A DNA stretch of 64,000 bases from Candidatus Woesearchaeota archaeon (lineage in GTDB: Archaea; Nanobdellota; Nanobdellia; Woesearchaeales; GW2011-AR4), in the NCBI GenBank assembly GCA_016188245.1, contig JACPIE010000038.1:30939-94938 (forward strand), in the 5' to 3' direction. Of the stretch, positions 5,921-63,791 are shown piece by piece. A program made the translations under genes and the position numbers. Below the pieces are notes generated by a model that was not told where the DNA came from, did not search any database, and saw only the letters and a list, made by a program, of their open reading frames with translations. Position 1 is the stretch's first letter; each line of letters opens with the position of its first letter.

Positions 5921-7535
5921 ATCTTAGCGTATCCCTTAATTGCTCTTCTGAATTGGGCCAGTCTTTTGAGTCGTCAGGGAATCTGGCTAAAATTTCCTGA
6001 ATTATTCTTGCCGACTGCCACTCTCTTGCCCTTATCAGAGCTTCCAAATATGCCTGAATTCCGGATACCGTAACCATCGGATATCTATTGTCAGGCTCTG
6101 CTTTCTTAAACTCATTTATTCCCTTGAACGGAATTCTGCCAGGGTTCGCCAAAGCCCTCCTGTCAAATTTTATTCCGCCAATTCCTGTAAACTTAACCAA
6201 GTCATCATTGAGGTGGACATCTTTTTTTTCTTCAAATGCCTTGATATAGTCTGAAGTTGTCCTGCTCTTTGCAGCCAATTCTCCGAATCTGAAATTTTGC
6301 AGATAAGTTTGCCATACCTTTTCCAATTCAGCCCTCATCATCAAGAAATTCGGAATGAAATGCGACATTGCTTTTGGATTGAGAAGCTTTTGCGGCTTTG
6401 CTCCAGACCTATTCACTTCTGCTTCATTCATCTTGTCAACTTCAACTCCGAATATATCCACTTCTAACCCTTTAGGGGCATCTTGTCCGCCAGTTGCCGC
6501 ATGCAAATCTCTCCTGAATTTTGCACCTAGCTTTGTTATTATGTAATGATGCCTGTAATCCCCTGCAATATTGTACATGTCATACAAATTCAGGACTAAT
6601 GAGTGCACTTCATGGTGAACGCCGAAAGCCTCTACCCTTCCTATGCTTTTTACAGCTCCTTCTTCTCCAAAAAACTGGGCGAAATCTGAATGTGCTTCCT
6701 CAGCCGCAGAATCAATTCTTTTTCTTATTTCATTCAGCTTGCCTGTAATCTCGATTAGAGCCCTTTTCTTTGCTGACTGCAGTTCTTTCTTTTTGCTTTC
6801 TGAATCTGTTTTGCCTATTGCCGCATTGTAATCTTTGACAACAAGAATTGATTCAAACATCAAGTCAGTTGTTTTGTTTATTGTGCTTAAAAGCACTTTG
6901 TCAAAAGATGTCCATCCCGAAATCTCTTTTCCTTCAGAAGTAGTGCCGCCGCTCCTGTAAGCCCTTATATCCTGCCTGAGAGCAGACCTTGTAAATGGTT
7001 GTTTTCCAGTTTCTTCCAAACTTTCGGCAAATCCAAATCTTCCCAAATCCTTATTTAACTGCTGTAATTTTTTTTGTATGTCATTTTTAATTGCATACCA
7101 TTTTGCAATCAGCGTGTCAAGCCTTAGCGCATAGTCCAGCAAAACAAAAGTCAATAATCTGTTTTCCCTGAAAGATTTTGGCTGATAGCCCGCTTCCCAC
7201 TCCCATTTTGTTATGGTTTCTGATTTGCCTTTCCATTTCTGCCATTTGTCCCTAATCCTGTTTCGGACAAATGCGCCCCTGCCTTTTCTTGACTGCCTGT
7301 CAAAATTCCTTGTTTCTTTTGATTTGGCAGCCCTTCCGGCAGCATCAAAGCCAAATCCGCTTAAAGTAGATTGTTTTGCGGAATATATTAATGCAAATAC
7401 GAGTCCTCCGCCTAATACGGCCATAACATATGGACTCATAGTTCCAACTAGGCCGTACGTTGGTATCCCTGTTAATTGAATAGCAAATAAAATACCTAAA
7501 CATCCAATACCCCATATCATGTCGTATATATCCAT
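5883..7535 (-). CDS. membrane-anchored hypothetical protein (550 aa), operon gene 3
   Basis: Two N-terminal TM helices ('GIGCLGILFAIQLTG...', 'VMAVLGGGLVFALIYSA') followed by a large soluble domain. No known motif. Confidence 0.55.
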   Translation of the reverse strand: MDIYDMIWGIGCLGILFAIQLTGIPTYGLVGTMSPYVMAVLGGGLVFALIYSAKQSTLSGFGFDAAGRAAKSKETRNFDRQSRKGRGAFVRNRIRDKWQKWKGKSETITKWEWEAGYQPKSFRENRLLTFVLLDYALRLDTLIAKWYAIKNDIQKKLQQLNKDLGRFGFAESLEETGKQPFTRSALRQDIRAYRSGGTTSEGKEISGWTSFDKVLLSTINKTTDLMFESILVVKDYNAAIGKTDSESKKKELQSAKKRALIEITGKLNEIRKRIDSAAEEAHSDFAQFFGEEGAVKSIGRVEAFGVHHEVHSLVLNLYDMYNIAGDYRHHYIITKLGAKFRRDLHAATGGQDAPKGLEVDIFGVEVDKMNEAEVNRSGAKPQKLLNPKAMSHFIPNFLMMRAELEKVWQTYLQNFRFGELAAKSRTTSDYIKAFEEKKDVHLNDDLVKFTGIGGIKFDRRALANPGRIPFKGINEFKKAEPDNRYPMVTVSGIQAYLEALIRAREWQSARIIQEILARFPDDSKDWPNSEEQLRDTLRFAKGTATIEKSK

Positions 7536-8846: not shown

Positions 8847-9988
8847 AATTCTTTTGCTACCTCATTCAGTATTTTATCATCAGGAACATCGTCAAACTCG
8901 TAGCCATGAGAAGTTAACTTCAGCCAAAGCCTTAGCACATTGTCAGCAAAGTAGAACTTGCTGTCTTTCTTGTAGATTATATCGACTTCCATCAGCCTTT
9001 CAAGAATGCTTTTTGCCACAGGCGCGCTTCTGTAAATGCGCTTTGCAATTTCACTCAGCCTTAATTCTTCATTAGCAACAGCCCGTAAAATTGTTTTAAG
9101 AAGTGTTTGCCCTCTTGCCCTGTTGTAGTAAAAATCAAAGGAATCACTGCAGTAATCATAAATCGAATTGTTTTTTTGCAGTAGCTCAATCAAAAATGCT
9201 TTTTTGACATCTTTAACTTCATTGTATTTTTTGGAAATCAAAATTGTAACCAACGGATGCCCATTGCTTAATGCAAAGATTTCATTGCCTGCCTTTTCAT
9301 TTTTGCCGATAATGCTTTCAATTAATTCAAATGCCTCTTTTTTCTCAAGATTTTTTATTTCAAAGCATTCAAATTTCTTCAATAAATGAAGCGACTGCCT
9401 GACAGAAGAGCTTGCCGCAATATACTTGACAAAAGACGAGTCAAAATTTATTATAGAAAGAATATCCTTAATCTGCGAGAAATTGTTCAAATCAAATAAA
9501 TTCTCGAAATTGTCAAGCGCTATCAGGAATTTTTTATTCGTGTCTTTTCCCAAAGTTTCGCTGAACTTAAATGCAGCTTCAACCAACAGTTTTTGGTCAG
9601 GCTTGATTTTCAGCAGCTCATTTTCAACTGCTTTTATCAAGGAAAAGGCATTTTTGCTTTTCAGCTCATCTTCAAGCTTTAGCAGATGCTCAAGCAAAAG
9701 GAATTTTTTATATTCAGCCAAAGGCTTTTTTAGAAAACTAAAGGCAGCATTGCCGATGAATTCAATTGAGAAATTCTCAGGATTCAGGCTGATTTTTTCC
9801 AAATCAATGTAAACTGTAATGGCATCTTTGGCATTTTTGAGATGATTTTTAAGAATCGATGTTTTGCCTGATTTCCTTGAGCCTAAAAGGGCAATATTTT
9901 TTCCGGCGCCTTTTTTGAAAGAATCTGTATTTTTATCTAACAAATCCAAGTAATGCTCTCTGCCAATCAATCCCTCTTTTCCCATCAT
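8843..9988 (-). CDS. archaeal-family AAA+ ATPase (PF01637-like) with C-terminal winged helix, operon gene 1
   Basis: Walker A 'ALLGSRKSGKTS' and Walker B-like 'FLIALDNFENLF'. The C-terminal 'LRLSEIAKRIYRSAPVAKSILERLMEVDIIYK' is a wHTH, the DUF234-like architecture of the archaeal ATPase family. Confidence 0.65.
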   Translation of the reverse strand: MMGKEGLIGREHYLDLLDKNTDSFKKGAGKNIALLGSRKSGKTSILKNHLKNAKDAITVYIDLEKISLNPENFSIEFIGNAAFSFLKKPLAEYKKFLLLEHLLKLEDELKSKNAFSLIKAVENELLKIKPDQKLLVEAAFKFSETLGKDTNKKFLIALDNFENLFDLNNFSQIKDILSIINFDSSFVKYIAASSSVRQSLHLLKKFECFEIKNLEKKEAFELIESIIGKNEKAGNEIFALSNGHPLVTILISKKYNEVKDVKKAFLIELLQKNNSIYDYCSDSFDFYYNRARGQTLLKTILRAVANEELRLSEIAKRIYRSAPVAKSILERLMEVDIIYKKDSKFYFADNVLRLWLKLTSHGYEFDDVPDDKILNEVAKEL

Positions 9989-36900: not shown

Positions 36901-38104
36901 CAAATGCATTGAATTTTCCTCCCTTATACTCATAGGCACACTCATCCTTTTCATTCAAGGTTACATTTTTAACTACGTCATTAATCCTTATTTCTGTAAT
37001 TTCTTCTGTTTCTGTAGGGTAAGATAAAGCTACATAATCTCCTTCATCAAGCATATTAAGCTGTATCCATTGAATCTTGTTGTCCTTATAGCTCAGTATA
37101 GGATGCTCTTCTGTTACAAGCATGGAAGGCTTTGGGAGTTTGCTGCAACTCACTTTGTATAAAGAGTTCGTATCTCTAACATATACTTTTTCAACTTTTC
37201 TAAACCTGCCCCTGTGTGTCAGTACTTCATCTCCAACTTTAATGTTTTTTATTTCCTTTGGACCATCTTTAGCCATTATTGGTTGGTTTGGATGAAAGCA
37301 TGCGCTTCCCATTCCCAAAGGATTGCCAAAATTGGCAATTGCAGGGGTATTCGGCATAAACAGCTTTCTTGTCATCAAATTGTAAAGCTCATCAAAATTC
37401 TTCTCATAGCTGTCAAGCTCGCCTTTCTTTATCATATCAAAGAGCTTGCTCCATGACACTTTCATCTGCCCGTTGCCGTTGAACCTGTCGTACATTCTCT
37501 TCAGCGCTTCCAGATGATACCTGTTAAGCCTGTATTTTCCAATTCCATACTGGTCTTCATTAATAGCGGGCTTGAAGTCTTCTGTGAAGTTTACCGGCTG
37601 CTGGCCGTGTATATCGAACAATCTTGCATCGTAAAACAAGTCAGGCAAAGCCGCATGCACTGCAACTCTTGTAAATAGCTGCTTGGGAGTTTCAATCAGC
37701 TTGCCTGTTGCATCCTTTCTCAAGTACCTTGCTTTCAGGACCCTTAACGCGTTTACATCAAAGCGCTTGTCAACTTCGTCAATTTCCTCTTTTTCAAGCA
37801 CAAGCTGCTTTTCCTTTCTTACCTCTGACCTTTGCTGCCTGTAAAGAATGTAGGCTTTTGCAGTTGCAGCATGCCCTTCCTCAATAAGCACTTTTTCCAC
37901 AATGTCCTGAATTTCTTCAACAGAAGGCACGTCTTTGTTGAGATTTTCAAGCTGCCCAATAACTTTGTCGCTGATTTGCCTGGCTGCTTTCCTGTCTTTT
38001 CCTCCGACAGCCCTTGCAGCCTTGAAAACAGCCTCTGTAATCTTGTTTTGGTCAAATCCTGCCACAGTCCCGTCCCGTTTCCTTATCTGAAAAAGCTTTT
38101 GCAT
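33971..38104 (-). CDS. nrdJ: adenosylcobalamin-dependent ribonucleotide reductase (class II) with ATP cone, two inteins and C-terminal Zn ribbon
   Basis: N-terminal ATP cone 'IRKRDGTVAGFDQNKITEAV'. Catalytic exteins 'GGGMGYNFSKLRPEGD', 'GIRRGANMGILNSNHPDIEQFI' and NPC|GE. C-terminal 'CPECGTKVELKEGCLHCPGCGWGLCT'. The intein-free product would be 852 aa. Confidence 0.9.
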   Translation of the reverse strand: MQKLFQIRKRDGTVAGFDQNKITEAVFKAARAVGGKDRKAARQISDKVIGQLENLNKDVPSVEEIQDIVEKVLIEEGHAATAKAYILYRQQRSEVRKEKQLVLEKEEIDEVDKRFDVNALRVLKARYLRKDATGKLIETPKQLFTRVAVHAALPDLFYDARLFDIHGQQPVNFTEDFKPAINEDQYGIGKYRLNRYHLEALKRMYDRFNGNGQMKVSWSKLFDMIKKGELDSYEKNFDELYNLMTRKLFMPNTPAIANFGNPLGMGSACFHPNQPIMAKDGPKEIKNIKVGDEVLTHRGRFRKVEKVYVRDTNSLYKVSCSKLPKPSMLVTEEHPILSYKDNKIQWIQLNMLDEGDYVALSYPTETEEITEIRINDVVKNVTLNEKDECAYEYKGGKFNAFVHTTKPVKNSITVDYELMKLFGYYLSEGSIADKDCVRFTFSADEENYCREVISIMENKFGVSARIEKTNSEARKWLSLRFHSTILANFFENILGRGYKNKYIPQWIIKLPQNKQKGIMAGLIRGDGTIFKNSHKTNAKLVMCNQNLVYAFWQMAMRCGVFTALGKESMPKLGTTQPYRCTISGENGLLLINELFDRQEVDSGYKPNTIVADGITFTEIDEISKVDYVGTVYNLEIEEDHSYVANMVSVHNCFVLDVPDSIDGIMETLKNTAIVFKAGGGMGYNFSKLRPEGDFVSSTGGVASGPLSFMRLFDTMTEVIKQGGIRRGANMGILNSNHPDIEQFITAKDGNKSLRNFNISILIMPDFWEHYEKNEPYPLVNPKDGKVVKTVNPRVLFDKVVYQAWESAEPGIIFFDRVNEYNPFYEHLGPIVTTNPCVTGDTMILTKSGSISIKELAEKYPNGGVGIAVHQTVKNGNQFLELINHVTQYKVFKTGLKQTIKLITKKGNDLRCTPDHKILTSNGWIEAAKLTEEDRIITTNEEHEDSIDRIEISGIEEVYDITEPSTHSFIANGIVVHNCGEVLLYPNEPCNLGSINVWAFTKEDEEGNKTVDWDSLREVVRGCTRFLDNVIDVNNFPLKAIEEMSLSTRKIGLGVMGVGDLLYELRLAYNSEQGRKFMELLMEFIAYWSKVESIELAKARGNLPYYDKSFYKQGKLPIRGPYLKDESHFDWGKISEDIKKHGIRNGYTTIIAPTGSISMIAGCSSGMEPVYSLVFEKNVKVGSFYYVDPAAEKVLRDEGLLNEKLMEDINEHRGSIQGIEYLPEQLRKVLVTATDMTPEDHIRALASFQKWVDSSISKTNNFPADATVEDMKESYILAYTLGCKDVTVFRDSSIKDQVLVAPKAKEKKEGANIEVDIKPEMKKMVKESESGLVFANGNGSDARPITKQTIKNCPECGTKVELKEGCLHCPGCGWGLCT
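35174..35599 (-). mobile_element. intein 2 (142-aa mini-intein) inserted at the NPC|GE radical-Cys motif
   Basis: 'VTTNP|CVTGDTMILTK...GIVVHN|CGEVLLYPNEPCNLGSIN'. Cys1, a terminal HN and a +1 Cys are present and there is no endonuclease domain. The paralog reads '...SCGEQPLLPYEACNLGSINLS' at this site. Confidence 0.85.
36152..37300 (-). mobile_element. intein 1 (383 aa) with LAGLIDADG homing-endonuclease domain, inserted before a conserved active-site Cys
   Basis: Begins with Cys ('GMGSA|CFHPNQ') and ends 'MVSVHN|CFVLDV'. LAGLIDADG blocks 'LFGYYLSEGSI' and 'IMAGLIRGDGTI'. The extein junction aligns with 'LAACFVLPIEDD' in the intein-free paralog. Confidence 0.85.
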
Positions 38105-38158
38105 TTTTTAACCTCTTTGCGTTTTTTACTACTCACACGAAAACACAACATATAGTAT

Positions 38159-38188
38159 ACAAGATGTCGTCGGCATACTACATCTTGT
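38159..38188. promoter_or_regulatory. 9-bp inverted repeat (acaagatgt/acatcttgt) in the nrdJ upstream region
   Basis: Perfect 9-bp arms separated by 12 nt, about 55-85 bp upstream of the nrdJ start codon. Confidence 0.25.
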
Positions 38189-38361
38189 GTATTTTTAGTT
38201 CATGCTTATATTTAAAGATTGTGATTCCGCTATATAAAAACAAAGCACCTTTTTACCAAAACCCGAACAAAAATGGAAGATTTTGAGGTTTATATATTTT
38301 AGGCAGGGATGTCCAGTGGTTGATTATGCGCATTTAAATACAAGCTTAACATTATGCATTT

Positions 38362-38778
38362 ATGAATAAAAATCGTGAAGAATGCTATGTTTTAACTGAG
38401 AAACTTGAAGAGATTACATGGGCATTGGATGGGAGCTGCAATGACATAGACTGTGACAAGTACATGTATAAACGGCTTCTTAAAAAGAAATACAAGCCGG
38501 TCCTAAAGCATAGCTACTCATGCATTCCTAAATTAAAAATGGAAAAAGAAGCAGTTATGCGCTTGTTATCTTTAAAAAAATTCCGACAGTTTCGATACAA
38601 AAAATGCGAAGTATGCGGCAGGAAAATAGATTCGTTAGGAAAACATTATGCGATTGTAAGTTTTACAAAGCCTGCTGAATATAATGGCAAGAGAGTATAC
38701 GAATGTAAATTGATTCGAACACACAAAAAATGCAAGCATAAAGTTAGCATACCGATGGGCTGGCAAAAAATGGGATAA
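38362..38778 (+). CDS. Cys-rich hypothetical protein (Zn-ribbon-like)
   Basis: 'CEVCGRK...YECKLIRTHKKCKH' CxxC pairs. Lysine-rich. Confidence 0.35.
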   Translation: MNKNREECYVLTEKLEEITWALDGSCNDIDCDKYMYKRLLKKKYKPVLKHSYSCIPKLKMEKEAVMRLLSLKKFRQFRYKKCEVCGRKIDSLGKHYAIVSFTKPAEYNGKRVYECKLIRTHKKCKHKVSIPMGWQKMG

Positions 38779-39187
38779 TTCTTTTGTCAGAAAAATAAGA
38801 GAAAAGTTCACATAACGTACAATATTTCACGAGGTTTTTTTCCTCACAAAATTTTCCCTCGTGAGCAAATTTCGGCAACCCATGAAATTTGCGAACAGAG
38901 TTGGAAAATTTTGAGAGCTGGAAAAAACTTAGGACAAATCGAAAAATGCTTGGCATTTTAGCTTAAGCGTTCGATTTTTCCGTGAAATATGTGTTATATT
39001 CTTTTCCCATGCGTAGTGTGGGAAAACTGCGTCCGCAGACTTTTTTAGACATCGTAAATCTGAGAGGCACTGTAGTTTTTACAGTAGATTTCTGCCTAAG
39101 GCAGACTAGATGTCCGAAGGACTAGAGAAGGGGCTTTTAAATTACATTAATATTTATATATGTTAATTATTTCTAGTTAAGTCAAAA

Positions 39188-40327
39188 ATGGATAAGAAAC
39201 TTCCAGATATCAGTGAATTGCCTGAAAGTCAAAGGATTCTTCTTAGGAGAGGGGGCAAAATAAAAGTTCCAAGTGAAAAAACGATTGGGTTTTTAAAATT
39301 ATACAATAAAAATATAAGAGGCACGATTGCTGGCAATGCTGTATATGCTATCCTTAACCCAGAAAAAATTGATGAAAAATTCAGAAAAGAGAATCAAGAA
39401 AAAATTGAGGAAACTCTGAACAATTACCTAAAAATAGCTTTAAAAGATATGAACAAGCAAATTGATTTGCATAAGGTCAATGAAAATATCTGCCTTTTTG
39501 ATGAGGGAATTGGTTTAGGAATATATGTGCCAAAGCTTATTCAGCAATACTTTCGCAAAGAATCTACTTATTTCAGTGATCTACTTTATGGAGCAAAATA
39601 TAATAGAAATCTTCTTAATCTTTCTGTTTTTAGCAAAATACTTTCAAAGAACATAAGGAATTTTACAGATCATGTGAATATTGATTACTTAATTTTCATG
39701 CCTTACTCACATAAAGGTTCAAAATCATTTTTTCCTTTGGAAATAATTGAGAAGGAGATACAAAAACAAGTGAACATTCCAATTTTTAGAATAATCAATA
39801 CGTCACAGCAAGAAAATCTCAAATATTCTACTTGGGCGCATAAAATACAGAGCATACTTCCAAATTTAAGAATAGACAATCCTGAAAAATTAAAATTTAA
39901 GAATATCATTCTAATTGATGATATCTATAATACTGGTGCACATCTTGCAGTTGCTTGCATAAAATTAAGACAAGCTAGTGTAAACAATATTTTTGTTTTA
40001 ACGTTGGGAGTATCCGATAATGTTAAGAATGATTTAAGCAATGAATTTGATTGGGAATGGCTGGATTTTTATAATGAAAGAAAAGAAACAAATATGATAA
40101 CTACTTCCCTCAGTCTAATAACTTTAAATTATCCATTAGACACGATAAACAAGAAGACTTCCCATTACAACTTAAAAGACTATGGAATCAAAGAATTATT
40201 GTTGACTAATACGTACCTCAAGAAAATGTTCAGAATCCATGTGAGATATTCTTCTAACAGAAGGAGTTATGTTCTTTTCATTGAGCCAGAATTAAAAGAA
40301 AAATTGAAAAGCTTTATAGGGAAATAA
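39188..40327 (+). CDS. phosphoribosyltransferase (PRTase)-domain protein, ShosT-like
   Basis: Type I PRTase PRPP-binding motif 'IILIDDIYNTGAHLAVACIKL'. Strongly AT-rich gene. Confidence 0.5.
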   Translation: MDKKLPDISELPESQRILLRRGGKIKVPSEKTIGFLKLYNKNIRGTIAGNAVYAILNPEKIDEKFRKENQEKIEETLNNYLKIALKDMNKQIDLHKVNENICLFDEGIGLGIYVPKLIQQYFRKESTYFSDLLYGAKYNRNLLNLSVFSKILSKNIRNFTDHVNIDYLIFMPYSHKGSKSFFPLEIIEKEIQKQVNIPIFRIINTSQQENLKYSTWAHKIQSILPNLRIDNPEKLKFKNIILIDDIYNTGAHLAVACIKLRQASVNNIFVLTLGVSDNVKNDLSNEFDWEWLDFYNERKETNMITTSLSLITLNYPLDTINKKTSHYNLKDYGIKELLLTNTYLKKMFRIHVRYSSNRRSYVLFIEPELKEKLKSFIGK

Positions 40328-40925
40328 TATCAGAGAGCTTGTTAAAGCTAAAATCTGGCTTTTCTTTTATTTTGTTATTATTATGCCAAAGTACAAGCCC
40401 AGAAAGACATCCAGCGTTTTTTGCAGCCAGAATATCCACATCCTGATCGCCGATATAGATTGTATTTTCAACATCTCCTTTTAGGTAATTGATGGCAATT
40501 AGTAAGGGTTTTGGGCTAGGCTTTCTAGCTCTTGTTTCACTGGGAGTTACTATCACATCTCCATATCTCAATAGATTGAATTGATTTAGCAATTTAAACG
40601 CAAACTCCTTTTTCAAAGAAGTTACAAATCCAATCTTTTTATCATTGCTTTTAAGGACTTTCATAGTTTCTTGAGTATTTTCAAAAAATAGTCTAATTTT
40701 GTCCAAATTGCTAGCATAAAATTTCCAGTATTTATTTAAGGACATAATACGGAATTCTGACAATATAGAGGTAAAAGATGCTCCCTTTCTTAATTTTGTA
40801 AATACATCTTCTTGATTAATATTTTTTCCTCCAGAATCCAAGATTGTATTAAATATTGCTTCAGCAATGCAATTTTCTGAATGCCAAAGTGTACCATCTA
40901 AATCAAATAAAATTGTCTTAATCAT
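40314..40925 (-). CDS. HAD-superfamily phosphatase
   Basis: Motif I 'ILFDLDGTLWHSE' and C-terminal 'IYIGDQDVDILAAKNAG'. Confidence 0.75.
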   Translation of the reverse strand: MIKTILFDLDGTLWHSENCIAEAIFNTILDSGGKNINQEDVFTKLRKGASFTSILSEFRIMSLNKYWKFYASNLDKIRLFFENTQETMKVLKSNDKKIGFVTSLKKEFAFKLLNQFNLLRYGDVIVTPSETRARKPSPKPLLIAINYLKGDVENTIYIGDQDVDILAAKNAGCLSGLVLWHNNNKIKEKPDFSFNKLSDIISL

Positions 40926-41830
40926 TTAAAGGGAAATTTTACTTCATGACCATTAGCAAAAGCAATGATTTCGGCTTTTTGGTCATTTTTAATTTTCAAA
41001 TTACCACTATACGCTTCGGTATTGTCTTGGAATGGGATAAGAACCCCAATTGGCTTTTTTTGCTCCTTTGCTGCAATATAGGAATTCATAGTTCCTCCTT
41101 TTTCAGAAGTCTGCACAATCAAAACATAATTTGATAGCCCAACTATTATTTTATTCCTTTTTTTCAGGGCAAAATCTTGAACTTTGGTTCCTGGAGGGTA
41201 TTCACTTATAATTATCCCGTGTTTAATTATTTCATTTTTTAAAATTAAATTTTCTTTAGGATAATCAACGTCAATTCCACATCCTAATACTGCAATAGTA
41301 TCCCCACTATTATCTAATGCTGTTTTATGAGCTATTGCATCAAGTCCCATAGCTAAACCGCTAACTATACAAAAACCATCATTAACTAGTTTTTTTACAG
41401 CAATTTTGCCATTTTCTATTGCCCATTCATCAGGTTTTCTTGTACCTACAACAGCGCAAGATTTTAGTTTATTTAGAGTACTTAAATTTCCTTTAACATA
41501 TAGAATAGGCACAGAATGACTGGACTCAAAGAGGGTTTTGGGGTAATCTTGTTCAAAAAAGGTAATTATCTTTACCTGATTTAAATTTGTTTTTTCTATT
41601 ATCTTGTGTGCTTCATGTTCAAAATATTCTAATTTTGGTTTTCTTTCTAAAATTTGAGAAACTACCTCTTTTTTTAACTTAAATTCACTTTCTAATTCCT
41701 CTTTTGTCATATCAAATACTTTTTGAAATGATTTGTAAGCCTTAAAAAAAGTCTTAAATTTAACTGGGCCAAATCCTTTAACTTCTAAAAGATTTAGAAT
41801 CGCCCCTAGCTCCTTTAGATCATTCACCAT
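40922..41830 (-). CDS. dprA: DNA-processing protein DprA/Smf
   Basis: N-terminal SAM/HhH domain, then Rossmann DprA core 'IVSGLAMGLDAIAHKTAL...TIAVLGCGIDVDYPKEN...RNKIIVGLS'. Confidence 0.8.
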   Translation of the reverse strand: MVNDLKELGAILNLLEVKGFGPVKFKTFFKAYKSFQKVFDMTKEELESEFKLKKEVVSQILERKPKLEYFEHEAHKIIEKTNLNQVKIITFFEQDYPKTLFESSHSVPILYVKGNLSTLNKLKSCAVVGTRKPDEWAIENGKIAVKKLVNDGFCIVSGLAMGLDAIAHKTALDNSGDTIAVLGCGIDVDYPKENLILKNEIIKHGIIISEYPPGTKVQDFALKKRNKIIVGLSNYVLIVQTSEKGGTMNSYIAAKEQKKPIGVLIPFQDNTEAYSGNLKIKNDQKAEIIAFANGHEVKFPFK

Positions 41831-41952
41831 AATATAAAGTCTATCAATGTTAATTTAAAAAATTATCTAATTATATGGGGCAAACAAGCTAGGGAGTTGG
41901 GGCTTTAAAATACCATTTATGATTTTAGAATTTTTGATTTTTTACAAATATA

Positions 41953-44835
41953 TTACCAATTTACTTTAATCTTTAGTACTTCGTTGTGCAATTTATTAAA
42001 ATAATCTAATTTACCGTCTTTTTTTCCTTTTTCATATAGTTTTTTTATTAATCTTACATCATGCTTACAGTACTCTGTAACTTTATCTATTTTTCCCTCC
42101 TTAAACCATTTTAAAGATTGCAGTCCATCCGCTATCTTATTCTCATTAAAATTTATTTGGGCAAGGTCTCCTAATTTTAATCTAAAATTAAGCCTGTTTC
42201 TTATATGTTCTAATAAATCTAATGGTTTAATCAAATTCTGATTAAAATTTTCATACCCAGATAAAACTCTAAAATCGAAATATTTGATATTATACCCAAT
42301 AACTAAATCTGCCTTGTATAAAGATTCAATTAGTGCCTGCACTTCATTTTCTGTATAAACTTGATAGTTATCATTATTATCTAGGGTAACAGCTATAGCT
42401 ACCTTCATTTTGTCAATATTTCTCCATCCGCCTACTTCATCTGCACCTTTCTGAGTTTCTACATCAAAAAAGATTATATTTTGTTGAATTTTAGTATCTT
42501 CATCAATTAGTTTCGTAACTAATTGAGGCTCTACCTTTATATCTTCCACTTTTAGATAGCCACGCATATATTTTAATATTTCAATTGCAGTGGCTTTACT
42601 TAGTGGTTCATTATCATTACCACACTTAGGACTCATTATACATTTAGGGCAGCCATTGTCTTTATTACATTTGCATTTACTTATTAGTTCATTCGTAAAA
42701 CCTAATAGCTCGTCAAATATATTATATGCTTTTTCACAAAGTCCAATCCCTCCATCATATCCGTCGTAAATAAAGATAGATGCTCTTTTAGTTTGTGGAT
42801 GGAATAACATGGAATATCCGCCTATGTCCCATCGGTCACATAAAACTTTGATTGGAAATAAAGAAATTATGCCATGTTCAATTGCATGCAATCCACCTCC
42901 ATAAAGTGTCTCTTTATCTATGTTATTTTTTGGACAAAATGTAGAACTAACTACATCTGGTAGTTCTATCCAACAAGATTTAGTTATTAGCTTTACCATA
43001 GGGCAATCTACATCTATTAAAGAACTCATTTTTTCTCTTGTAGACTTCTTTATTTTATAGTAACCAATTACTTGTTCATTTACTTCGACTATTCCAAATT
43101 TTAGTTTGAAACTATTAAATGTTTTTTCATCTAACACCTTTATAACTCTAATGTCTTTGAGAGAATATGGCTCAGTATAATAATCAACAAAACAAGGTTT
43201 GACATAAATATCTTTTCCATAATCATCAATTTCTGTAACGATGAATTCCCTTCCCCCATGTAAGTATATAGCTCCGCTATGGCATTCATTGTAGATATTA
43301 AATATTGAAATATCCCCGATGACTTCTTTTTTGTTTTTGTTGATAATTGTATATTGTTGTCTCGAATCCCTTAAAGTAACTTTTCTGTGTAGGTCTTGGT
43401 GAGATATTAAATCGCCCCTATAATTTCTTGCTAATCTTCCCTCACTCTCTAATTCTTCCATGATTTTTTTGGCATAAACAGGAAAATATTTTTCATTATC
43501 TTTTTGTAATGGAAACTCTATCGATGCACACAATAGATGATTCATTAGGACATACCTATTATTAATATCAATTATGGCTTCCTCAAATTTATTCTCAAAA
43601 AGATAATTTGGATTATCTAAAAAATAGGAGTCCATCGGAGAACTACCATCAAATAAAATTACTACAAAAGATTCCTTATCCCTTCTTCCAACCCTGCCTG
43701 CTTGTTGCCAAGTGCTTATTAAACTCCCCGGATAACCAACCATAATGCAAAAATCTAAATTCCCGATGTCTATTCCAAGTTCAAGTGCATTTGTGCTAAT
43801 AATACCTTTTAATTTTCCTGTTCTAATTTTTTTCTCGATTTCTCGTCTTTCTTCTGGGAGCAAGCCTGCTTTGTACGGTTTAACAACTTTTTTTATGTCA
43901 TTATCACTCCACATATAAAGTAACTCAGTAATTTTTCTTGCTCTGGTAAAGGCTATCGTTTTCAAATTTGATTTAATACCTAACTTCAATAACTCAACAG
44001 CTTCTGTATTGATTGACCTTTGCTCGATATCTTGATTTTTGAGAAGCTCATTAATATCACTAATTGTAGGTGTCCAATAAATAAAATTTTTCTTGCTGGA
44101 AGGGTGATGAGATTCAGTAATTACTTTAAAATATCTGCCAGGGATTAAGTTATCTATAAATGATTCTGGATTACCAATTGTCGCCGAGGAACTGATAAAT
44201 TGAGGATTTGAATTGTATAAGTCGCATATTCTCAACAATCTCCTCATGACCATTGTAAAATGTGTCCCAAATATTCCTCTGTATATATGAGACTCATCTA
44301 CAATAACATATTTCAAATTTTTAAAAAATTTCTCCCATTTTTCCCTATATCTTAAAATTGCACAATGTAATTCATTAGGGTTAGTAATGATTATATTAGG
44401 CAGGTTGTGTCTTATGAATCTTTTCTTTGAATCATCAGTGTCTCCATCGTAAACTTCAAAGCTAAAACCTTTATTGTAAGGTAGATTTTCGTCTATTTCT
44501 CTTAATTTTTCTAATTGATCTTGTTGTAGAGCTTTCAAAGGAAAAATATAAAGTGCTCGAGTTTCTTTATTTCTTAATATACTATTTAAAACTGGAATGT
44601 TATAGACTAGTGTCTTGCCACTTGATGTTGGGGTTGTTAATAATACATTATCCTTTCTGTGTACAAGTTCGATAGCTATTGATTGATGTTTGTATAATTT
44701 TGTAATTCCTAATTTATTTATAGCATTCTTCAAATCTTGGTCTATCCAGTGGGGGAAATCAAAGTATTGTCCCTCTTTCTCATCTATAACTTTCCAAAAT
44801 TTTATTTTTTTGTTATCGAGATTTAAAAAGTTCAT
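41953..44835 (-). CDS. MrfA-like DEXH-box helicase with DUF1998 zinc domain fused to a C-terminal MrfB-like DEDD 3'-5' exonuclease
   Basis: Helicase motifs 'LLTTPTSSGKTL', 'VIVDESH', 'QQAGRVGRR'. DUF1998 Cys cluster 'CKCNKDNGCPKCIMSPKCG'. Exonuclease Exo I 'IFFDVETQ', Exo II 'YNIKYFDFRVL', Exo III 'YCKHDVRLIKKLY'. Confidence 0.75.
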   Translation of the reverse strand: MNFLNLDNKKIKFWKVIDEKEGQYFDFPHWIDQDLKNAINKLGITKLYKHQSIAIELVHRKDNVLLTTPTSSGKTLVYNIPVLNSILRNKETRALYIFPLKALQQDQLEKLREIDENLPYNKGFSFEVYDGDTDDSKKRFIRHNLPNIIITNPNELHCAILRYREKWEKFFKNLKYVIVDESHIYRGIFGTHFTMVMRRLLRICDLYNSNPQFISSSATIGNPESFIDNLIPGRYFKVITESHHPSSKKNFIYWTPTISDINELLKNQDIEQRSINTEAVELLKLGIKSNLKTIAFTRARKITELLYMWSDNDIKKVVKPYKAGLLPEERREIEKKIRTGKLKGIISTNALELGIDIGNLDFCIMVGYPGSLISTWQQAGRVGRRDKESFVVILFDGSSPMDSYFLDNPNYLFENKFEEAIIDINNRYVLMNHLLCASIEFPLQKDNEKYFPVYAKKIMEELESEGRLARNYRGDLISHQDLHRKVTLRDSRQQYTIINKNKKEVIGDISIFNIYNECHSGAIYLHGGREFIVTEIDDYGKDIYVKPCFVDYYTEPYSLKDIRVIKVLDEKTFNSFKLKFGIVEVNEQVIGYYKIKKSTREKMSSLIDVDCPMVKLITKSCWIELPDVVSSTFCPKNNIDKETLYGGGLHAIEHGIISLFPIKVLCDRWDIGGYSMLFHPQTKRASIFIYDGYDGGIGLCEKAYNIFDELLGFTNELISKCKCNKDNGCPKCIMSPKCGNDNEPLSKATAIEILKYMRGYLKVEDIKVEPQLVTKLIDEDTKIQQNIIFFDVETQKGADEVGGWRNIDKMKVAIAVTLDNNDNYQVYTENEVQALIESLYKADLVIGYNIKYFDFRVLSGYENFNQNLIKPLDLLEHIRNRLNFRLKLGDLAQINFNENKIADGLQSLKWFKEGKIDKVTEYCKHDVRLIKKLYEKGKKDGKLDYFNKLHNEVLKIKVNW

Positions 44836-45348
44836 TTTATCTTGTTATACCCTATTCTTTTGTTGGTTAAAGTAAAATATTATATAAATATTCCCTTATA
44901 AAAGCTCCTTCTCCCGTCGTTAAGTAAAAACTTAGGAGAACGAAGTGAACCGTATAATCTCTCGTTATGCGAATCTCCTTGAGTTTGCATTTCTAAGATT
45001 ATGCGAAAGTGTCTCTCAATTAAGATTTACGGCGTAAGCCTTTTCATAGGTGTCTAAAAAAGTGAATATAACGCCGTTATGGCGAACTTTTCAATCTGCA
45101 TTTTTTGTATTTTGCCCTAAAAACAGAATTCACTTACAATGCACTATTCTGTTGTTCTTGGTGTAACAAACCAGTTTATTTTTCCATATTGTAGACAACT
45201 ATTCCAAGATAGCAACAAAAATGTACATTTTGTACAAAAGTTTATATATAATCTCTACATTATACTAATTTAGCAGGTAAAACCTGTTGGTCAGTGTACT
45301 TTGAAGTGCACGCACAACAGTACCAGCAGGTGCTGCTTTTCTTTCGTT

Positions 45349-45960
45349 TTACCATAAATGGGCTACGTTAACTTTTTTCTCGATTACCCTGAAATAAATG
45401 TCATTGCCGTGTTCAAACTTATGAAAAACTGCCCATGACACAATATCTGCTATCTGCAATCCGGGCCAAGCATGTGACCAGCTGTGGTATATCTCTATCT
45501 CCCTAGCCCATCTCGCTTCTTTGAACTTCATCTCCATATACTTGTTAAAGTCTTCAATTAAAGTCTGCTTTCCTTTTGACCTGTCAATCCTCATAGTCAA
45601 TCTTCTGGAATCAACCGATATATTGGCTAAATGGCTGCACACAAAATTATACAATTTGTGCTTGTCGCTTTTGAGAAATTGGCTATACAATTTTTTCTTT
45701 TCAAGTATAATGCTTTGTGCATGGGCGGATTCAATTTCCATAAACTTTTTTAATGTATGCATAATCAATTCTGCACTTGAGTCATTCGCCTTGATTTCAG
45801 AAGCATTTTTTAGCTCTTTTTTAAATTTGTTTCTTCTCATATTTTTTATTATTCGTTCTAAGAAAGCGGGATTGTCTACCCAAATTGCAGTAATCACAAA
45901 ATATTTTGAGCCCTTTTCTCCTAAATCTCCAGTTTCATCAATGTAAACGTATCTTTCCAT
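45349..45960 (-). CDS. DUF3800-domain protein
   Basis: N-terminal 'VYIDETGDLG' is the signature start of DUF3800. Confidence 0.65.
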   Translation of the reverse strand: MERYVYIDETGDLGEKGSKYFVITAIWVDNPAFLERIIKNMRRNKFKKELKNASEIKANDSSAELIMHTLKKFMEIESAHAQSIILEKKKLYSQFLKSDKHKLYNFVCSHLANISVDSRRLTMRIDRSKGKQTLIEDFNKYMEMKFKEARWAREIEIYHSWSHAWPGLQIADIVSWAVFHKFEHGNDIYFRVIEKKVNVAHLW

Positions 45961-46000
45961 TAAGAAAATACATGTTTATTAATTTAAAAATCTTTAGAAT

Positions 46001-60591: not shown

Positions 60592-60950
60592 TGAACAATT
60601 TTTATTTCTTATTGTATTTAAAGTTATTTGTCAAAATTCTTAAATAGGATTTGGGTGTCTTTTTATCACAATAACTTACAGAAGATTATTGTTAAATGCT
60701 TTTCCGGCTGCGAAGTGCCAATAAATTATGCATTTTAAACAGCGTTCCGAAAAGTAGTTTTTAATGGCCCGTGCTCAATCAGGCGAACAAAGGTGAGCAG
60801 TCAAGAACAAACATCAAGTTGGACATTTTGTTTCAGTAGTTTTGTTAGTTAGCCGTTAGGGTGGTCATCAATTCATCAGCCTAACTGATAGTTGCAGAAC
60901 AAATATAAATAGATAAAAATTTAAATCTCCTAAAAACACAAAAAAATAAG

Positions 60951-61427
60951 ATGGAAAAAATAATGCTCGACACTAATGTCTTTTCTAGACCTTTAGATGA
61001 TTTGTCAGACAAAAGTGTAAAACTGGAAGCTGAATCATCAAAGAGAATATTCAATTTTGCCCGCGATAAAACAGCATCAATAGTTACATCAGAAATCTTG
61101 TTTTATGAAATTGGCTTGATTAAAGAGAAAGACAAGCGCGAAGTGATTTTTCATCTTGCAAAAAATGTTGAAAGAAGCATGATTATGATTAATCCTGACA
61201 TTGAAAAACTTGCAGATGATCTTAAAGCCCACATTAAAGATTATGCTGATTGCCTGCATATCGCTTCAGCAGCTTTATCAGGCTGCAGCTATCTTGTCAC
61301 CTGCGACAAAGAATTATTAAGAAAGGCAGGAAAAATAGGAAGTTTTTTATTAAGCCTTAATATTAAGCTCCATATAATCAATCCTGTAAATCTTCCAAGC
61401 ATAATAGGCGAACAAAATGGAAACTGA
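60951..61427 (+). CDS. PIN-domain protein
   Basis: 'IMLDTNVF' N-terminus and a distal 'VTCD' acidic residue. Confidence 0.65.
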   Translation: MEKIMLDTNVFSRPLDDLSDKSVKLEAESSKRIFNFARDKTASIVTSEILFYEIGLIKEKDKREVIFHLAKNVERSMIMINPDIEKLADDLKAHIKDYADCLHIASAALSGCSYLVTCDKELLRKAGKIGSFLLSLNIKLHIINPVNLPSIIGEQNGN

Positions 61428-61626
61428 AATGCACCATCCACTGGTTGAGAAGGGAATAGCAGCTCTGTTCAAAGAGCTTGGACCAGTGGAAACCATAGAA
61501 TTCTTCCAGAGATTGGGCATCAATAGAGGAGACAGTGTAAAAGAAATTGAGAGTATCACAGAAAAGATGAGTAAAGAGGAGATTTTGCAAGGCATTAGGA
61601 AATCAAGGAAACAGATTCATTCTTAA
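61417..61626 (+). CDS. small hypothetical protein overlapping the PIN gene end (possible cognate partner)
   Basis: 69-aa ORF overlapping the PIN gene by 11 nt. No motif recognised. Confidence 0.3.
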   Translation: METEMHHPLVEKGIAALFKELGPVETIEFFQRLGINRGDSVKEIESITEKMSKEEILQGIRKSRKQIHS

Positions 61627-61880
61627 GTAGTAACAGAAAGCTTTATATACTAGCTCTTCTTTTCTTACAGCTATGAAAGGAGTTGGTTGTTTTCATTGTG
61701 GGCAAATTTTATTCTGATTTAAATAATTTATACTCCATTAATTTGATTGGTTTTAAGTTTCTAGATAATGTTATTTCTATTCATCATCATCGCTAAAATT
61801 CTTGCATTGTTTAATTTAAAATCTTTTTTTATTTCAATTATTAAAATTTTGAGCTAAAATGGAATAAGGCAAAACAATAT

Positions 61881-61988
61881 GGTGGCAGTAGTTCAGTGGT
61901 AGAATAAGCGGCTGTGGTGCAACAAGTGAGCACTCACTTACGTTCGTGCAGCTCCCGCTTGGCGCGAGTTCGATTCTCGCCTGCCGCC
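61881..61988 (+). tRNA. tRNA-His (GUG) with encoded G-1 and a 36-nt anticodon-loop intron
   Basis: G-1 plus acceptor GUGGCAG/CUGCCGC, C73 discriminator, D-arm GUUC-AGUGGUA-GAAU, anticodon stem AGCGG/CCGCU with loop CUGUGG, intron ~61918..61953, T-arm GCGAG-UUCGAUU-CUCGC. Confidence 0.8.
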
Positions 61989-62031
61989 CTTTAAAATATG
62001 GAGGCAAAAATGGAAAATATGGTATCAACCA

Positions 62032-62613
62032 GTGATTGTATTCATTGTCGTGCCAAACAATAAGAGCTTGGCAAATTATTTAGATATAACTCTGCGCTAT
62101 TTAGGAAACCCATCTAAAGATAAGGTAGTCGTTTCCAGAGGGGAAGATGTACCATTTATTATAGAGGAGTTATCTCAAAATGGTAAAAAGGCAATTGGCT
62201 TAACAGGCAGGGATTTGTTTAAAGAATACGAGCTATCCAAGTACAACACTAATCTTCTTGTGCTAAAAACTATTGACTGGAATGATAAAAACGCAATGTT
62301 TGGAAAGCCAGTTTTATGCCTGTTAGGCCCAAAAGGTAAAAAGCTGGAAGATTTTCCTAAAAATCTTAGAGTTTCCATTAATTCAAAATACAAAAACCTT
62401 GCTAAAAAATATCTTAATATTCTGGAAGACAAGGGCTATAGGTTTGCTAAAATCTATTTATCGGGTTCAACTGAATCCGCATACTGCAATGGCATTTCTG
62501 ACTTGGTTATTGATATTGTCTATACCGGCTCATCTATCAAAAATGCTAATCTTGAGGTTTATGACAAGATCTTTGAAAGCGATTTTGTAATTATAGGTGT
62601 GAAAAATGATTAA
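62032..62613 (+). CDS. hisG: ATP phosphoribosyltransferase (short form)
   Basis: 'AIGLTGRDL', 'KIYLSGSTESAYCNGISDLVIDIVYTGSSIKNANLEV'. The N-terminal PKGRL motif is degenerate. Confidence 0.65.
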   Translation: MIVFIVVPNNKSLANYLDITLRYLGNPSKDKVVVSRGEDVPFIIEELSQNGKKAIGLTGRDLFKEYELSKYNTNLLVLKTIDWNDKNAMFGKPVLCLLGPKGKKLEDFPKNLRVSINSKYKNLAKKYLNILEDKGYRFAKIYLSGSTESAYCNGISDLVIDIVYTGSSIKNANLEVYDKIFESDFVIIGVKND

Positions 62614-63343
62614 GCCAAGACAAGCTGTAATGGAAATGCAGGCATATAATCCGCCAACTTCAAATAGAGAAGGCTCTTTAAGATTGGATTTTAATGAAAA
62701 TACCAGTGGGTGTTCTAAAAATGTAATAAAGTCGCTTAGAAAAATAAAAAGAGGAACTCTATCAACATACCCAGAATATACGGCATTAAAAAAAGAAGTG
62801 GCGAAATATTGCAAAGTTAAATCAGACGAGATTATCGCAACTAATGGAACGGATGAGGCAATTAAAACAATCATTGAAGTATACATTGAAGTATACATTG
62901 AGAAAGGTAAGAACGAAATTATTATTCCTATGCCGACTTATGCCATGTTTAAATTTTATGCTCAATTGAATGAGGCAATAAATATAGCAAATGAAAAATC
63001 GCCAGAACACTTGGAATTACAAATAAAAAATCCAGAAAATACAATAAGGAAACTTAAAAATTACGGCTCATTGTTTATAGGAGAGAATACAGCAGAAGTT
63101 TTTGGAGATTATTGCAGCGGCACTAATCACGTACTTCCAACAAATGGTGCAGCCAGATTTACTGGAGGCCTATCAGTAAAGGAATTTGTAAAGATTGTAA
63201 CGTGTCAGAGATTTAGTAGAAAAATTCCAAAGAGTATGATTAAGACAGCTTCAAAACTTGCAGAGATAGAAGGACTTGATGCACACCGAAAAGCAGCTTT
63301 AATTAGGTCAAAGAGTAAAAGTGAAGAGAACTCCACCTCGTAG
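62606..63343 (+). pseudogene. chimeric his-operon remnant: hisC (histidinol-phosphate aminotransferase) N-terminal fragment fused in frame to a hisD (histidinol dehydrogenase) C-terminal fragment
   Basis: N-terminal 'LRLDFNENTSGCSKNV...IATNGTDEAI...IIIPMPTYAMFKFYAQL' is HisC-like. C-terminal 'GDYCSGTNHVLPTNGAARFTGGLSVKEFVKIVTCQRFS...AEIEGLDAHRKAALIR' is HisD-like. A 12-bp tandem duplication (gaagtatacatt x2, EVYIEVYIE) sits inside the HisC-like portion. Confidence 0.6.
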
Positions 63344-63617
63344 TTTAGTGTAGTTTCGTTAGTCTTCGAAATGTCCCCCAATTAACCATAAAGCCACTAA
63401 AAATTATTGAGATTAACAAGCTTTCGCAAAATTTATATCCCTCTTTTATACTTAAAATAGTCTATATTAACTACTTTTTTAGTATTAATTTTTAAATTTA
63501 ATACATTAAAAATACTTTATTTATGCTTAAAATCGTATAAATTTTATTTTTTTATAATCACAATCTTTAAATAGTTATACTTAAAATAGTATAAAAAAGG
63601 TATATTAATAGGTAAAA

Positions 63618-63791
63618 ATGAGTATTCAAATTAGAATTACTGTATCTAAAGAAATCAACGATTTACTAGAGAGAGTTTCTAAAAAGCTTGGCAAAAAGAA
63701 GTCAATGCTCGCCCGCGAGCTGATGGAGCAGAAAATGTACGATCTTGACCTTATACAGAAAGAGCTGCAGGAAATGGACAAAAAAGGCTGA
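63618..63791 (+). CDS. small ribbon-helix-helix (CopG/MetJ/Arc-like) protein, not in ORF track
   Basis: Manual translation gives MSIQIRITVSKEINDLLERVSKKLGKKKSMLARELMEQKMYDLDLIQKELQEMDKKG. Preceded by AT-rich promoter-like sequence. Confidence 0.45.
   Translation: MSIQIRITVSKEINDLLERVSKKLGKKKSMLARELMEQKMYDLDLIQKELQEMDKKG

Follow-up and report, generated by a model that had tools for sequence, protein, structure and literature searches.

A hisC-hisD Fusion Probably Left by One Deletion in a Woesearchaeal Histidine Operon, and Its Conserved tRNA-His-hisG Leader

How does a single open reading frame (ORF) come to begin as hisC and to end as hisD? The question is raised by a stretch of 64,000 nt from a contig of Candidatus Woesearchaeota, a small DPANN archaeon of groundwater, which is called the window here and stands for the whole of the DNA analysed. 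Near its end, on the + strand, the window carries a histidine (his) locus consisting of a leader, a tRNA-His gene, hisG and a fusion ORF, hisC'::'hisD. An earlier note on this DNA had proposed a gene fusion driven by deletion, in a his pathway caught during decay. The comparisons reported here indicate that one deletion between 12-base repeats gutted the his operon and left the hisC'::'hisD ORF as a remnant, a reading to which we assign a probability of about 0.88.

The window was compared with other his loci, which are referred to by L numbers. The main reference is L008 (CAZIEE010000057.1), the closest intact his locus, while L002 (GCA_016192955.1, contig JACPTD010000012.1) belongs to a sister metagenome-assembled genome (MAG). 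For the start of hisG, 77 distinct 5' ends were taken from scans of GTDB and of metagenomes, the genome of the window being absent from the GTDB representatives scanned. Searches for his genes by tblastn covered the 64-kb window. Literature searches returned no account of the window's hisC'::'hisD fusion, and none of frameshifting at hisG or of his leaders in archaea.

The Fusion ORF Is a Chimera of HisC and HisD

The fusion ORF is made up of the following parts:

62606-63343, + strand: fusion ORF hisC'::'hisD, 245 aa, its start overlapping the hisG stop (ATGA)
62606-62965, + strand: hisC-derived head, fusion codons 1-120, with 92% nucleotide identity to hisC of L008
62872-62901, + strand: 12-bp tandem duplication within the HisC head
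62966-62977, + strand: proposed deletion junction with the microhomology TTGAATGAGGCA, codons L121 N122 E123 A124
62978-63343, + strand: hisD-derived tail, the last 121 codons and hisD's own stop

Residues 5-127 of the product match positions 1-121 of the 349 in the hisC profile TIGR01141 (68.4 bits; cut-off 276.55), and residues 109-234 match positions 285-410 of the 411 in the histidinol dehydrogenase profile PF00815 (E 1.2e-41). Against the HisD profile TIGR00069 the product scores 139.9 bits, below the cut-off of 243.8. Alignment to solved structures places residues 47-120 on E. coli HisC 47-118 and residues 120-239 on E. coli HisD 312-431. Since both the HisC and the HisD profile matches are partial, the ORF is a true chimera and not a short member of one family; by the ranges of the profile and structure alignments it is neither a complete HisC nor a complete HisD. 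The breakpoint falls at codons 121-124. The description in the earlier note, of an ORF that starts as hisC and ends as the C-terminus of hisD in one frame, therefore stands, and can be made precise as HisC residues 1-124 followed by the last 121 residues of HisD.

Each half is close to the corresponding gene of the relatives. Residues 1-124 are 87% identical to, and colinear with, the N-terminus of the full-length HisC/HAD protein of L008, and residues 121-245 are 89-91% identical to the HisD C-terminus of L002 and L008. At the nucleotide level the tail is 89-93% identical to hisD of L002, L003, L008 and L009, with homology extending into the 3' flank as far as 63417. Compared with HisC (TIGR01141; fold-type I pyridoxal phosphate (PLP) enzymes, PF00155), the head is colinear with the N-terminus but keeps only about one third of the protein: it has lost the PLP-lysine core, the C-terminal domain and the HAD phosphatase fused to it, and has gained a four-residue duplication. 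The tail shares with HisD (PF00815, TIGR00069; E. coli structure 1K75) its C-terminus, stop codon and 3' flank, but lacks the residues equivalent to E. coli 1-311.

The fusion forms a one-member cluster in 5.8 billion proteins. Among the best 120 of 2,997 matches it is the only protein with both Pfam domains, the other matches listed being full-length HisD (at most 91% identity over the tail) or full-length HisC (at most 82% over the head). It is identical to MBI2542343.1, from a Candidatus Woesearchaeota MAG (144,575-bp contig). The NCBI name of this entry, 'aminotransferase class I/II-fold pyridoxal phosphate-dependent enzyme', hides both the HisD half and the truncation. Two loci of Aenigmatarchaeota, L035 and L042, seemed to match fusion residues 1-243; they carry hisD directly followed by hisC and are not chimeras.

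The perfect 12-bp tandem duplication that the earlier note had seen in the HisC part is recovered by Tandem Repeats Finder with a period of 12, 2.5 copies and a 100% match. It adds four codons (EVYI) and is private to the window, being absent in all four aligned relatives (L008, L003, L012 and L007). By our own arithmetic, such a perfect duplication is expected about 0.004 times per 64 kb.

A Probable Single Deletion between In-Phase Repeats

Relatives of the window hold the operon intact, in the order tRNA-His, hisG (193 aa), a hisC/HAD (hisN) fusion (571 aa), hisB, hisH, hisA, a hisF-hisIE fusion (407 aa) and hisD (about 400 aa). In some of them hisS lies 3' of hisD, and all of the his genes are on one strand. 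Because hisG, hisC and hisD are co-directional in this order, one internal deletion suffices to set a hisC head on a hisD tail.

Alignment by blastn divides the region into two colinear blocks. Window positions 61628-62977 correspond to L008 53-1387 (92.45% identity), and positions 62966-63417 correspond to L008 6720-7167 (88.7%), the two blocks overlapping by the 12-bp microhomology at 62966-62977. The same 11-12-mer is present, in the same codon phase, in both hisC (1376-1387) and hisD (6720-6731) of L008, where the two copies are 5,344 bp apart, and L002 hisD holds the perfect 12-mer at 1317-1328. Both copies encode LNEA, as ..YAQLNEAVI.. in hisC and as ..KNLNEAINI.. in hisD. Given two colinear blocks that meet at a microhomology, a single deletion accounts for the fusion and its frame, and also for the survival of the hisD stop and 3' flank. 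The comparison with orthologous loci suggested in the earlier note thus yields intact operons at 92% nucleotide identity, and these blocks, the microhomology and the 5,344-bp gap bear out a fusion driven by deletion. A separate Logan assembly of run SRR12113429 matches 61989-63662 (1,674 bp) at 100% identity and is unbroken across the junction. None of the deleted genes (hisB, hisH, hisA, hisF/IE), nor hisS, was found by tblastn elsewhere in the 64 kb.

The ancestor would have had a full co-directional his operon behind the leader and tRNA-His. One event of illegitimate recombination or replication slippage between the in-phase copies of TTGAATGAGGCA, the first in hisC codons 117-120 (L008 numbering; 121-124 in the window) and the second in hisD codons about 282-285, would have removed about 5,344 bp. 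Lost with it would have been hisB, hisH, hisA and hisF/IE in their entirety, the regions of hisC for PLP binding and HAD, and hisD up to its last third. Since the two copies read Leu-Asn-Glu-Ala in one and the same phase, they join without a seam and without a change of frame, and the remaining 245-codon hisC'::'hisD ORF would still be translationally coupled to hisG.

Other candidate variants of the operon were set aside. In L009-L011 hisD appeared to be an orphan; in fact hisF/IE precedes it, and a 141-aa gene has been inserted in between. L048 and L061 had been taken for further deletion variants; they show instead other arrangements of the genes (hisG-hisE-...-hisD and a hisG/hisE fusion), which distant lineages commonly have.

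A Different Deletion in a Sister Genome

The his operon is also deleted, at other points, in L002, which comes from the same kind of groundwater sample and shares 95% identity with the window in the DNA that precedes the tRNA gene:

L002 1-1700 (JACPTD010000012.1): deletion locus, with the leader joined to the hisIE 3' end, then hisD

About 5.5 kb is missing there; the leader runs directly into the final 100 nt of hisIE, and the two meet at a microhomology that is not perfect, AAATTTTGA(G/A)(C/A)TA. L002 has lost tRNA-His, hisG, hisC, hisB, hisH, hisA and most of hisF/IE, and it keeps a full-length hisD. As the window and L002 each retain parts that are missing in the other, neither arrangement can be derived from the other. 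The L002 deletion is thus independent and supports an ongoing erosion of the his operon in this clade, and the earlier suggestion of a his pathway in decay gains the backing of a second locus.

The sets and orders of his genes vary widely in DPANN and related MAGs (L124, L130, L159-L173; L134/L136; L140-L143; L038, L041, L064). They include hisG-hisE-hisS, hisG-hisD-hisC, hisG-HAD-hisD and tRNA-His-hisS-..-hisD, and several of them look like partial pathways, with the first two and the last steps.

Pseudogenes and fused remnants are known from reductive evolution in Buchnera, Rickettsia and Mycobacterium leprae, as is illegitimate recombination mediated by microhomology. The window likewise shows a deletion in an operon between short repeats, with truncated flanking genes, and the DPANN lineage is likewise known for small genomes and patchy biosynthesis. 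In contrast to those remnants, the event in the window is seen very early: it is in frame and free of stops, with an intact reference at 92% identity and a second deletion in a sister genome. The fusion is a new example of a well-known process. It offers a clean snapshot of a biosynthetic pathway dying in a small-genome archaeon, an ordinary step of genome reduction that provides direct material on the rates and mechanisms of gene loss in DPANN, and its aminotransferase name is a caution for annotators.

Remnant, Strain Variant or New Protein

The fusion is almost certainly a recent remnant made by deletion, without enzymatic function and drifting, as judged from its sequence. The PLP lysine of E. 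coli HisC lies near residue 214. We take the fusion to lack the PLP-lysine region and two of the four HisD zinc ligands, and the missing N-terminal two thirds of HisD presumably correspond to most of both Rossmann-like domains of the E. coli enzyme. De novo histidine synthesis would then have been lost, making the cell dependent on external histidine, and tRNA-His and the leader would survive because the tRNA is needed.

Substitutions point in the same direction. Those specific to the window number 8 nonsynonymous and 2 synonymous in the fusion, against 10:13 in the same segments of four relatives, and the 8:2 ratio agrees with the neutral site ratio of 3.76. Changes occur at fusion sites that are otherwise invariant (L65V, V109M, D73E, Y80C, K82R and L115S). 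These lineage-specific counts are suggestive only, as the pairwise ratio of nonsynonymous to synonymous rates (dN/dS) does not set the window apart from its relatives, and the comparison of the fusion with hisG is biased by the different numbers of comparator sequences. From the low pairwise dN/dS it follows that the deletion is young compared with the divergence from L008 (dS 0.12-0.34). The low G+C of the his region (0.32-0.34 vs 0.41) was considered as a sign of decay or transfer and discarded, intact relatives being equally low (0.32 vs 0.46 in the flank).

Several observations weigh against a functionless remnant in a lost pathway. The nonsynonymous excess in the fusion is not significant (Fisher p = 0.07), its pairwise dN/dS against the relatives is still low (0.18-0.34), and the ORF is open over 245 codons in an expressed-looking context. 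The window-specific changes in hisG (3 nonsynonymous and 10 synonymous) show no relaxation. The assembly of the window and the Logan assembly probably derive from the same reads, the L002 deletion is known from a single contig, and the limits of the gene search leave room for a second his locus outside the 64 kb.

The alternative that survives best takes the deletion as real but as a strain-level variant, with histidine synthesis persisting in the population or the genome through an intact copy. Intact operons are common in near relatives from comparable groundwater samples, the hisG of the window appears to be still under constraint, and the Logan contig ends at the edge of the tRNA gene (61989), a break that is expected if strains have sequence in common there. 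This is tempered by the lack of any branch at the junction in the Logan contig and by the absence of all the remaining his genes from the 64 kb, and we regard a strain-level variant as unlikely, although worth keeping in view.

It is considerably harder to see the fusion as a functional new protein, bifunctional or neo-functional, for instance a regulator or scaffold in which the N-terminal arm of HisC is combined with the dimerisation and zinc-site region at the C-terminus of HisD. In favour of such a protein, the ORF is intact, the ATGA overlap couples it to hisG, and the HisD tail retains the motifs PEH, GDYCSGTNH and AHR. ORFs with only the HisD C-terminus are also found 5' of hisS in L033 and L037, with a dN/dS of 0.16 between them, but these fragments came from a query biased to that part of HisD. 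The fusion itself is a singleton that keeps 121 of the 349 HisC and 126 of the 411 HisD profile positions, and it bears a private four-codon duplication along with the excess of nonsynonymous changes. The bifunctional remnant that the earlier note had offered as an alternative thus finds no support, as most of both folds is gone and the fusion shows no mark of conservation. The ORFs of L033 (1838-2275, 145 aa) and L037 (3734-4231, 165 aa) differ in their 5' breakpoints, and may be remnants or a retained fragment.

That the junction is an artefact of the assembler or of a chimeric read, the real operon being intact, can hardly be credited: the window is a metagenome-assembled contig and the junction sits in a short repeat, but the Logan assembly crosses it unbroken, the junction is in frame, flank identity to the relatives is uniform on both sides, and the repeat, merely 12 bp, is below the usual size of (de Bruijn) assembler k-mers, which are normally longer than that.

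The tRNA-His Gene and Its Linkage to hisG

Upstream of hisG lies a tRNA gene with an intron:

61881-61988, + strand: tRNA-His(GUG), with encoded G-1 (61881) and discriminator C73 (61988); CCA is not encoded
61918-61953, + strand: intron of tRNA-His, 36 nt, at position 37/38, with a bulge-helix-bulge (BHB)

The Rfam model RF00005 matches 61882-61988 with 51.5 bits (gathering score 29) and a 39-nt insertion in the anticodon loop. With introns allowed, ARAGORN reports tRNA-His(gtg) at 61882-61989, with a 36-nt intron at position 38. In the minimum free energy fold, G61881 is paired with C61988 as G-1:C73. The tRNA-His that the earlier note had described ahead of hisG, with its GUG anticodon, G-1:C73 pair and 36-nt intron, is accordingly confirmed. 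By default ARAGORN finds no tRNA in the window, a false negative that is due to the intron and is overturned by Rfam and by the intron-permitting run. This tRNA-His is the sole tRNA of the 64 kb.

The G-1 is kept in tRNA-His of all five aligned relatives. Read by hand, the BHB has a 4-bp helix (C32-G, U33-A, G34-C and U35.G, with intron nt 31-34) between two 3-nt bulges, 5' GG/U and 3' CU/C38, and its GCAG strand is also present in the 39-nt tRNA-His intron of L003. The G-1, the intron and the BHB of this tRNA are ordinary archaeal features. Among loci, the introns of tRNA-His vary from none to one (17-57 nt) or two. In L008 tRNA-His (304-411), the acceptor stem has two A.C mismatches, where A at positions 1 and 4 faces C72 and C69, and L007 tRNA-His (about 9215-9390) has a second insertion, of 35 nt, in the T-loop besides the 37/38 intron.

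The position of the tRNA gene is shared much more widely. It lies directly 5' of hisG in L003-L008, L012, L018, L019, L021, L062, L071, L079 and many metagenome loci, and within 400 nt of hisG at 30 of the 53 class A 5' ends and at 9 of the 12 in class B, the classes being those of the hisG start defined in the next section. The linkage of tRNA-His to hisG is ancestral and belongs to a conserved leader that the earlier note had missed. In L079 and L021 only 17-40 nt separate the 3' end of the tRNA from the hisG ATG, which leaves no room for a promoter and implies that tRNA-His and hisG would be co-transcribed.

The hisG Start and a Candidate +1 Frameshift Site

The beginning of hisG raises a question of its own, that of how ribosomes enter the gene:

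62032-62613, + strand: hisG, short-form ATP phosphoribosyltransferase, 193 codons from GTG 62032, intact (PF01634, E 1.6e-20)
62000-62063, + strand: Shine-Dalgarno (SD) GGAGG at 62000-62004 and ATG at 62010, with the zero-frame ORF MENMVSTSDCIHCRAKQ and its stop
ATT 62040-42, CAT 62043-45, then T, + strand: candidate +1 shift site, where skipping C62043 enters the hisG frame

The product of the gene scores 74.1 bits against PF01634 (cut-off 25.5) and 71.6 bits against TIGR00070, just below the cut-off of 75.75, and is 94.8% identical to L008 HisG and colinear with it over its full length. Bacterial short-form HisG needs a partner, HisZ. Neither hisZ nor hisS homologues were found in the 64-kb window, and hisS adjoins the his operon in several relatives. 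In L007, hisG seemed to be divided between two genes, an effect of a string of N in the scaffold.

In the window, the ATG that follows the SD of hisG and the body of the gene lie in different frames, offset by one nucleotide. The same arrangement, with an out-of-frame ATG and a body reached only by +1 (class A), is found in 58 of the 77 distinct hisG 5' ends, including L094-L173 and others, and 19 of the 77 have the ATG in frame and no His codon (class B); counts of this kind are taken across loci that are not phylogenetically independent. The shift site in the 53 strict class A sequences is ATT-CAT (38), CTT-CAT (9), ATT-CAC (3), GTT-CAT (2) or CAT-CAT (1), and the five further sequences that complete the class also have an NTT-CAY site. 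In class A the zero frame stops a few codons past the His codon.

Several features set this site apart from its surroundings. The Phe codon of the hisG frame at the site is always TTC, while the ratio of TTT to TTC elsewhere in hisG is 409:160, and entropy is near zero across the shift cassette. An SD-like motif is found 5' of the zero-frame ATG in 34 of 49 sequences and 5' of the in-frame GTG position in 2 of 49. No ATG, GTG or TTG is present in the hisG frame in 8 of the 53 class A genes, and L145 and L164 have no hisG start of any kind save through a double shift.

Class B proteins read like the shifted class A product. L027 has ..KDCIIVVPNN and L133 has MINTQDYIIVVPKN, and the predicted shifted products are MENMVSTSDCI/IVVPNN for the window and MINSRGCI/IVVPKN for L129. 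The sisters L129 and L133 are separated by a single 1-nt indel, and class B is scattered over at least eight places in the HisG tree. Taken together, the alignments strongly support the hisG 5' cassette as a conserved feature, its mechanism being unproven.

We lean, by no wide measure, towards a +1 frameshift at NUU-CAY-N as the entry to hisG, and towards its being a possible sensor of charged tRNA-His. Ribosomes would start at the upstream SD-ATG or at a leaderless leader ORF (described below). When charged tRNA-His is scarce, they would pause at CAU, the P-site tRNA on NUU would slip by +1 (AUU to UUC), and HisG, which catalyses the first step of histidine synthesis, would be made; two shift sites in series would sharpen the response. 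The main rival is that hisG simply starts at the GTG at 62032, which has no SD, the overlapping upstream ORF having another role or none. A GTG is indeed frequent, in 39 of the 53 class A sequences, but such a start leaves unexplained the invariance of TTC, the colinearity with class B and the genes that have no start.

A +1 frameshift into hisG would have counterparts in autoregulatory systems, namely prfB (CUU-UGA-C), yeast Ty1 (CUU-AGG-C, a 'hungry codon') and antizyme. Like them, the candidate hisG site has a short ORF in the zero frame that carries start signals of its own, NUU as the P-site codon and a potentially slow codon in the A site; its predicted product lies in the +1 frame, and in-frame homologues match that product. 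It differs in that the A-site codon is a sense codon for the amino acid made by the operon, in that the host is archaeal, and in that up to two candidate sites follow one another, the ORF that connects them sometimes containing a tRNA-His gene. A review of archaea (2021) lists one cellular frameshift, a -1 case (PMC8211752), and a review of recoding (2016) states of hungry-codon frameshifting giving starvation-specific products that 'no examples are known' (PMC5009743). If true, the hisG shift would be the first natural case of amino-acid starvation being sensed by hungry-codon frameshifting, and the first cellular +1 programmed frameshift in Archaea.

The Leader Upstream of tRNA-His

A further set of elements precedes the tRNA gene:

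61632-61649, + strand: candidate promoter by consensus, with a sequence like the B recognition element (BRE), AACAGAAAGC, then a TATA box, TTTATATA (61642-61649)
61673-61717, + strand: leader ORF MKGVGCFHCGQILF and its stop, with the cassette GGTTGTTTTCATTGT at 61685-61699 and the His codon CAT at 61694-61696
61695-61796, + strand: +1 continuation of the leader, 33 codons, IVGKFYSDLNN...VISIHHHR, with its stop at 61794-61796
61824-61834, + strand: oligo-T tract TTTTTTTATTT, a candidate archaeal terminator or attenuator

The roles given here to promoter and terminator, like that of the frameshift, are read from the DNA letters. The promoter is conserved in all related loci, with the TATA box at a constant 22-23 nt 5' of the leader ATG, a distance that implies a leaderless transcript. 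A homologous leaderless ORF ending in (C/Y)(I/L/F)-H-x-x-stop is found in about 35 distinct loci (for instance L003 2226-2349, L021, L071, L079 and L039), its His codon lying 1-6 codons, usually 2-3, before the stop. With the start of hisG the leader shares a 15-nt cassette: GRTTRTNTTCAYTGT has exactly two occurrences in the window, at 61685 and at 62034, where 0.31 would be expected. The idea that the leader is a duplicated hisG 5' end was dropped, as only the 15-nt cassette is common to both.

The +1 frame of the leader is open as well. Three consecutive His codons lie in it at 61782-61790, and in 19 loci of the window's clade this frame has the same length, is free of stops and ends rich in His (2-4 codons). 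A run of T5-T7 is kept at the position of the oligo-T tract in a 16-sequence alignment. In this clade the connection to hisG is broken: the +1 ORF ends in IHHHR and a stop, a T7 tract follows, and the tRNA has stops in all three frames.

Elsewhere the chain is uninterrupted. In 12 loci, L145 and L164 among them, it would run from the leader ATG through a first NTT-CAY with its +1 shift, then over 17-121 connector codons that are free of stops, and through a second NTT-CAY and +1 shift into hisG. The +1 frame is open through the whole tRNA-His gene, as its only open frame, in 14 loci, and 11 of these 14 ORFs end on or next to a downstream start (of hisG, or of hisS in L038) or run in frame into the hisG zero-frame ORF, the types of ending being an ATGA overlap, TAA-N-ATG and ATGGTAG. 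A tRNA-His embedded in the +1 ORF, introns included, is seen in L021, L038, L071, L079/L128, L124, L129, L134, L160, L165, L166 and L170.

The bacterial his attenuator (hisL, with seven His codons; Rfam His_leader) and the T-box are the nearest known systems. The window likewise has a short ORF with a His codon ahead of the first his gene, and the leader of its clade resembles hisL in having three His codons in a row and a T-rich tract behind them. In contrast to both, hairpins of the terminator or antiterminator type are not conserved in it: for 16 leaders RNAalifold yields a consensus energy of -0.29 kcal/mol and 3 pairs without covariation, and Rfam returns no match to a T-box, His leader or riboswitch at E <= 1. 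It also departs from hisL in its archaeal TATA/BRE promoter, its leaderless mRNA and the location of the His run in the +1 frame.

Neighbouring Features in the Window

Just 5' of the his leader, at 60951-61626, a PIN-domain gene overlaps a 69-aa ORF, and the two may form a toxin-antitoxin pair. The PIN gene is preceded by an intergenic element of about 95 nt (60747-60852), which is 80-85% identical to two tandem copies 3' of L008 hisD (7222-7417); this element has no Rfam match and no stable fold. On the other side, 3' of the fusion, a 57-aa ORF resembling ribbon-helix-helix (RHH) proteins lies at 63618-63791, and L008 also has an RHH gene after hisD. Further away, at 38000-46000, the window contains an 8-kb block of low G+C (0.30-0.33 vs about 0.41) with a 960-aa ORF and other ORFs.

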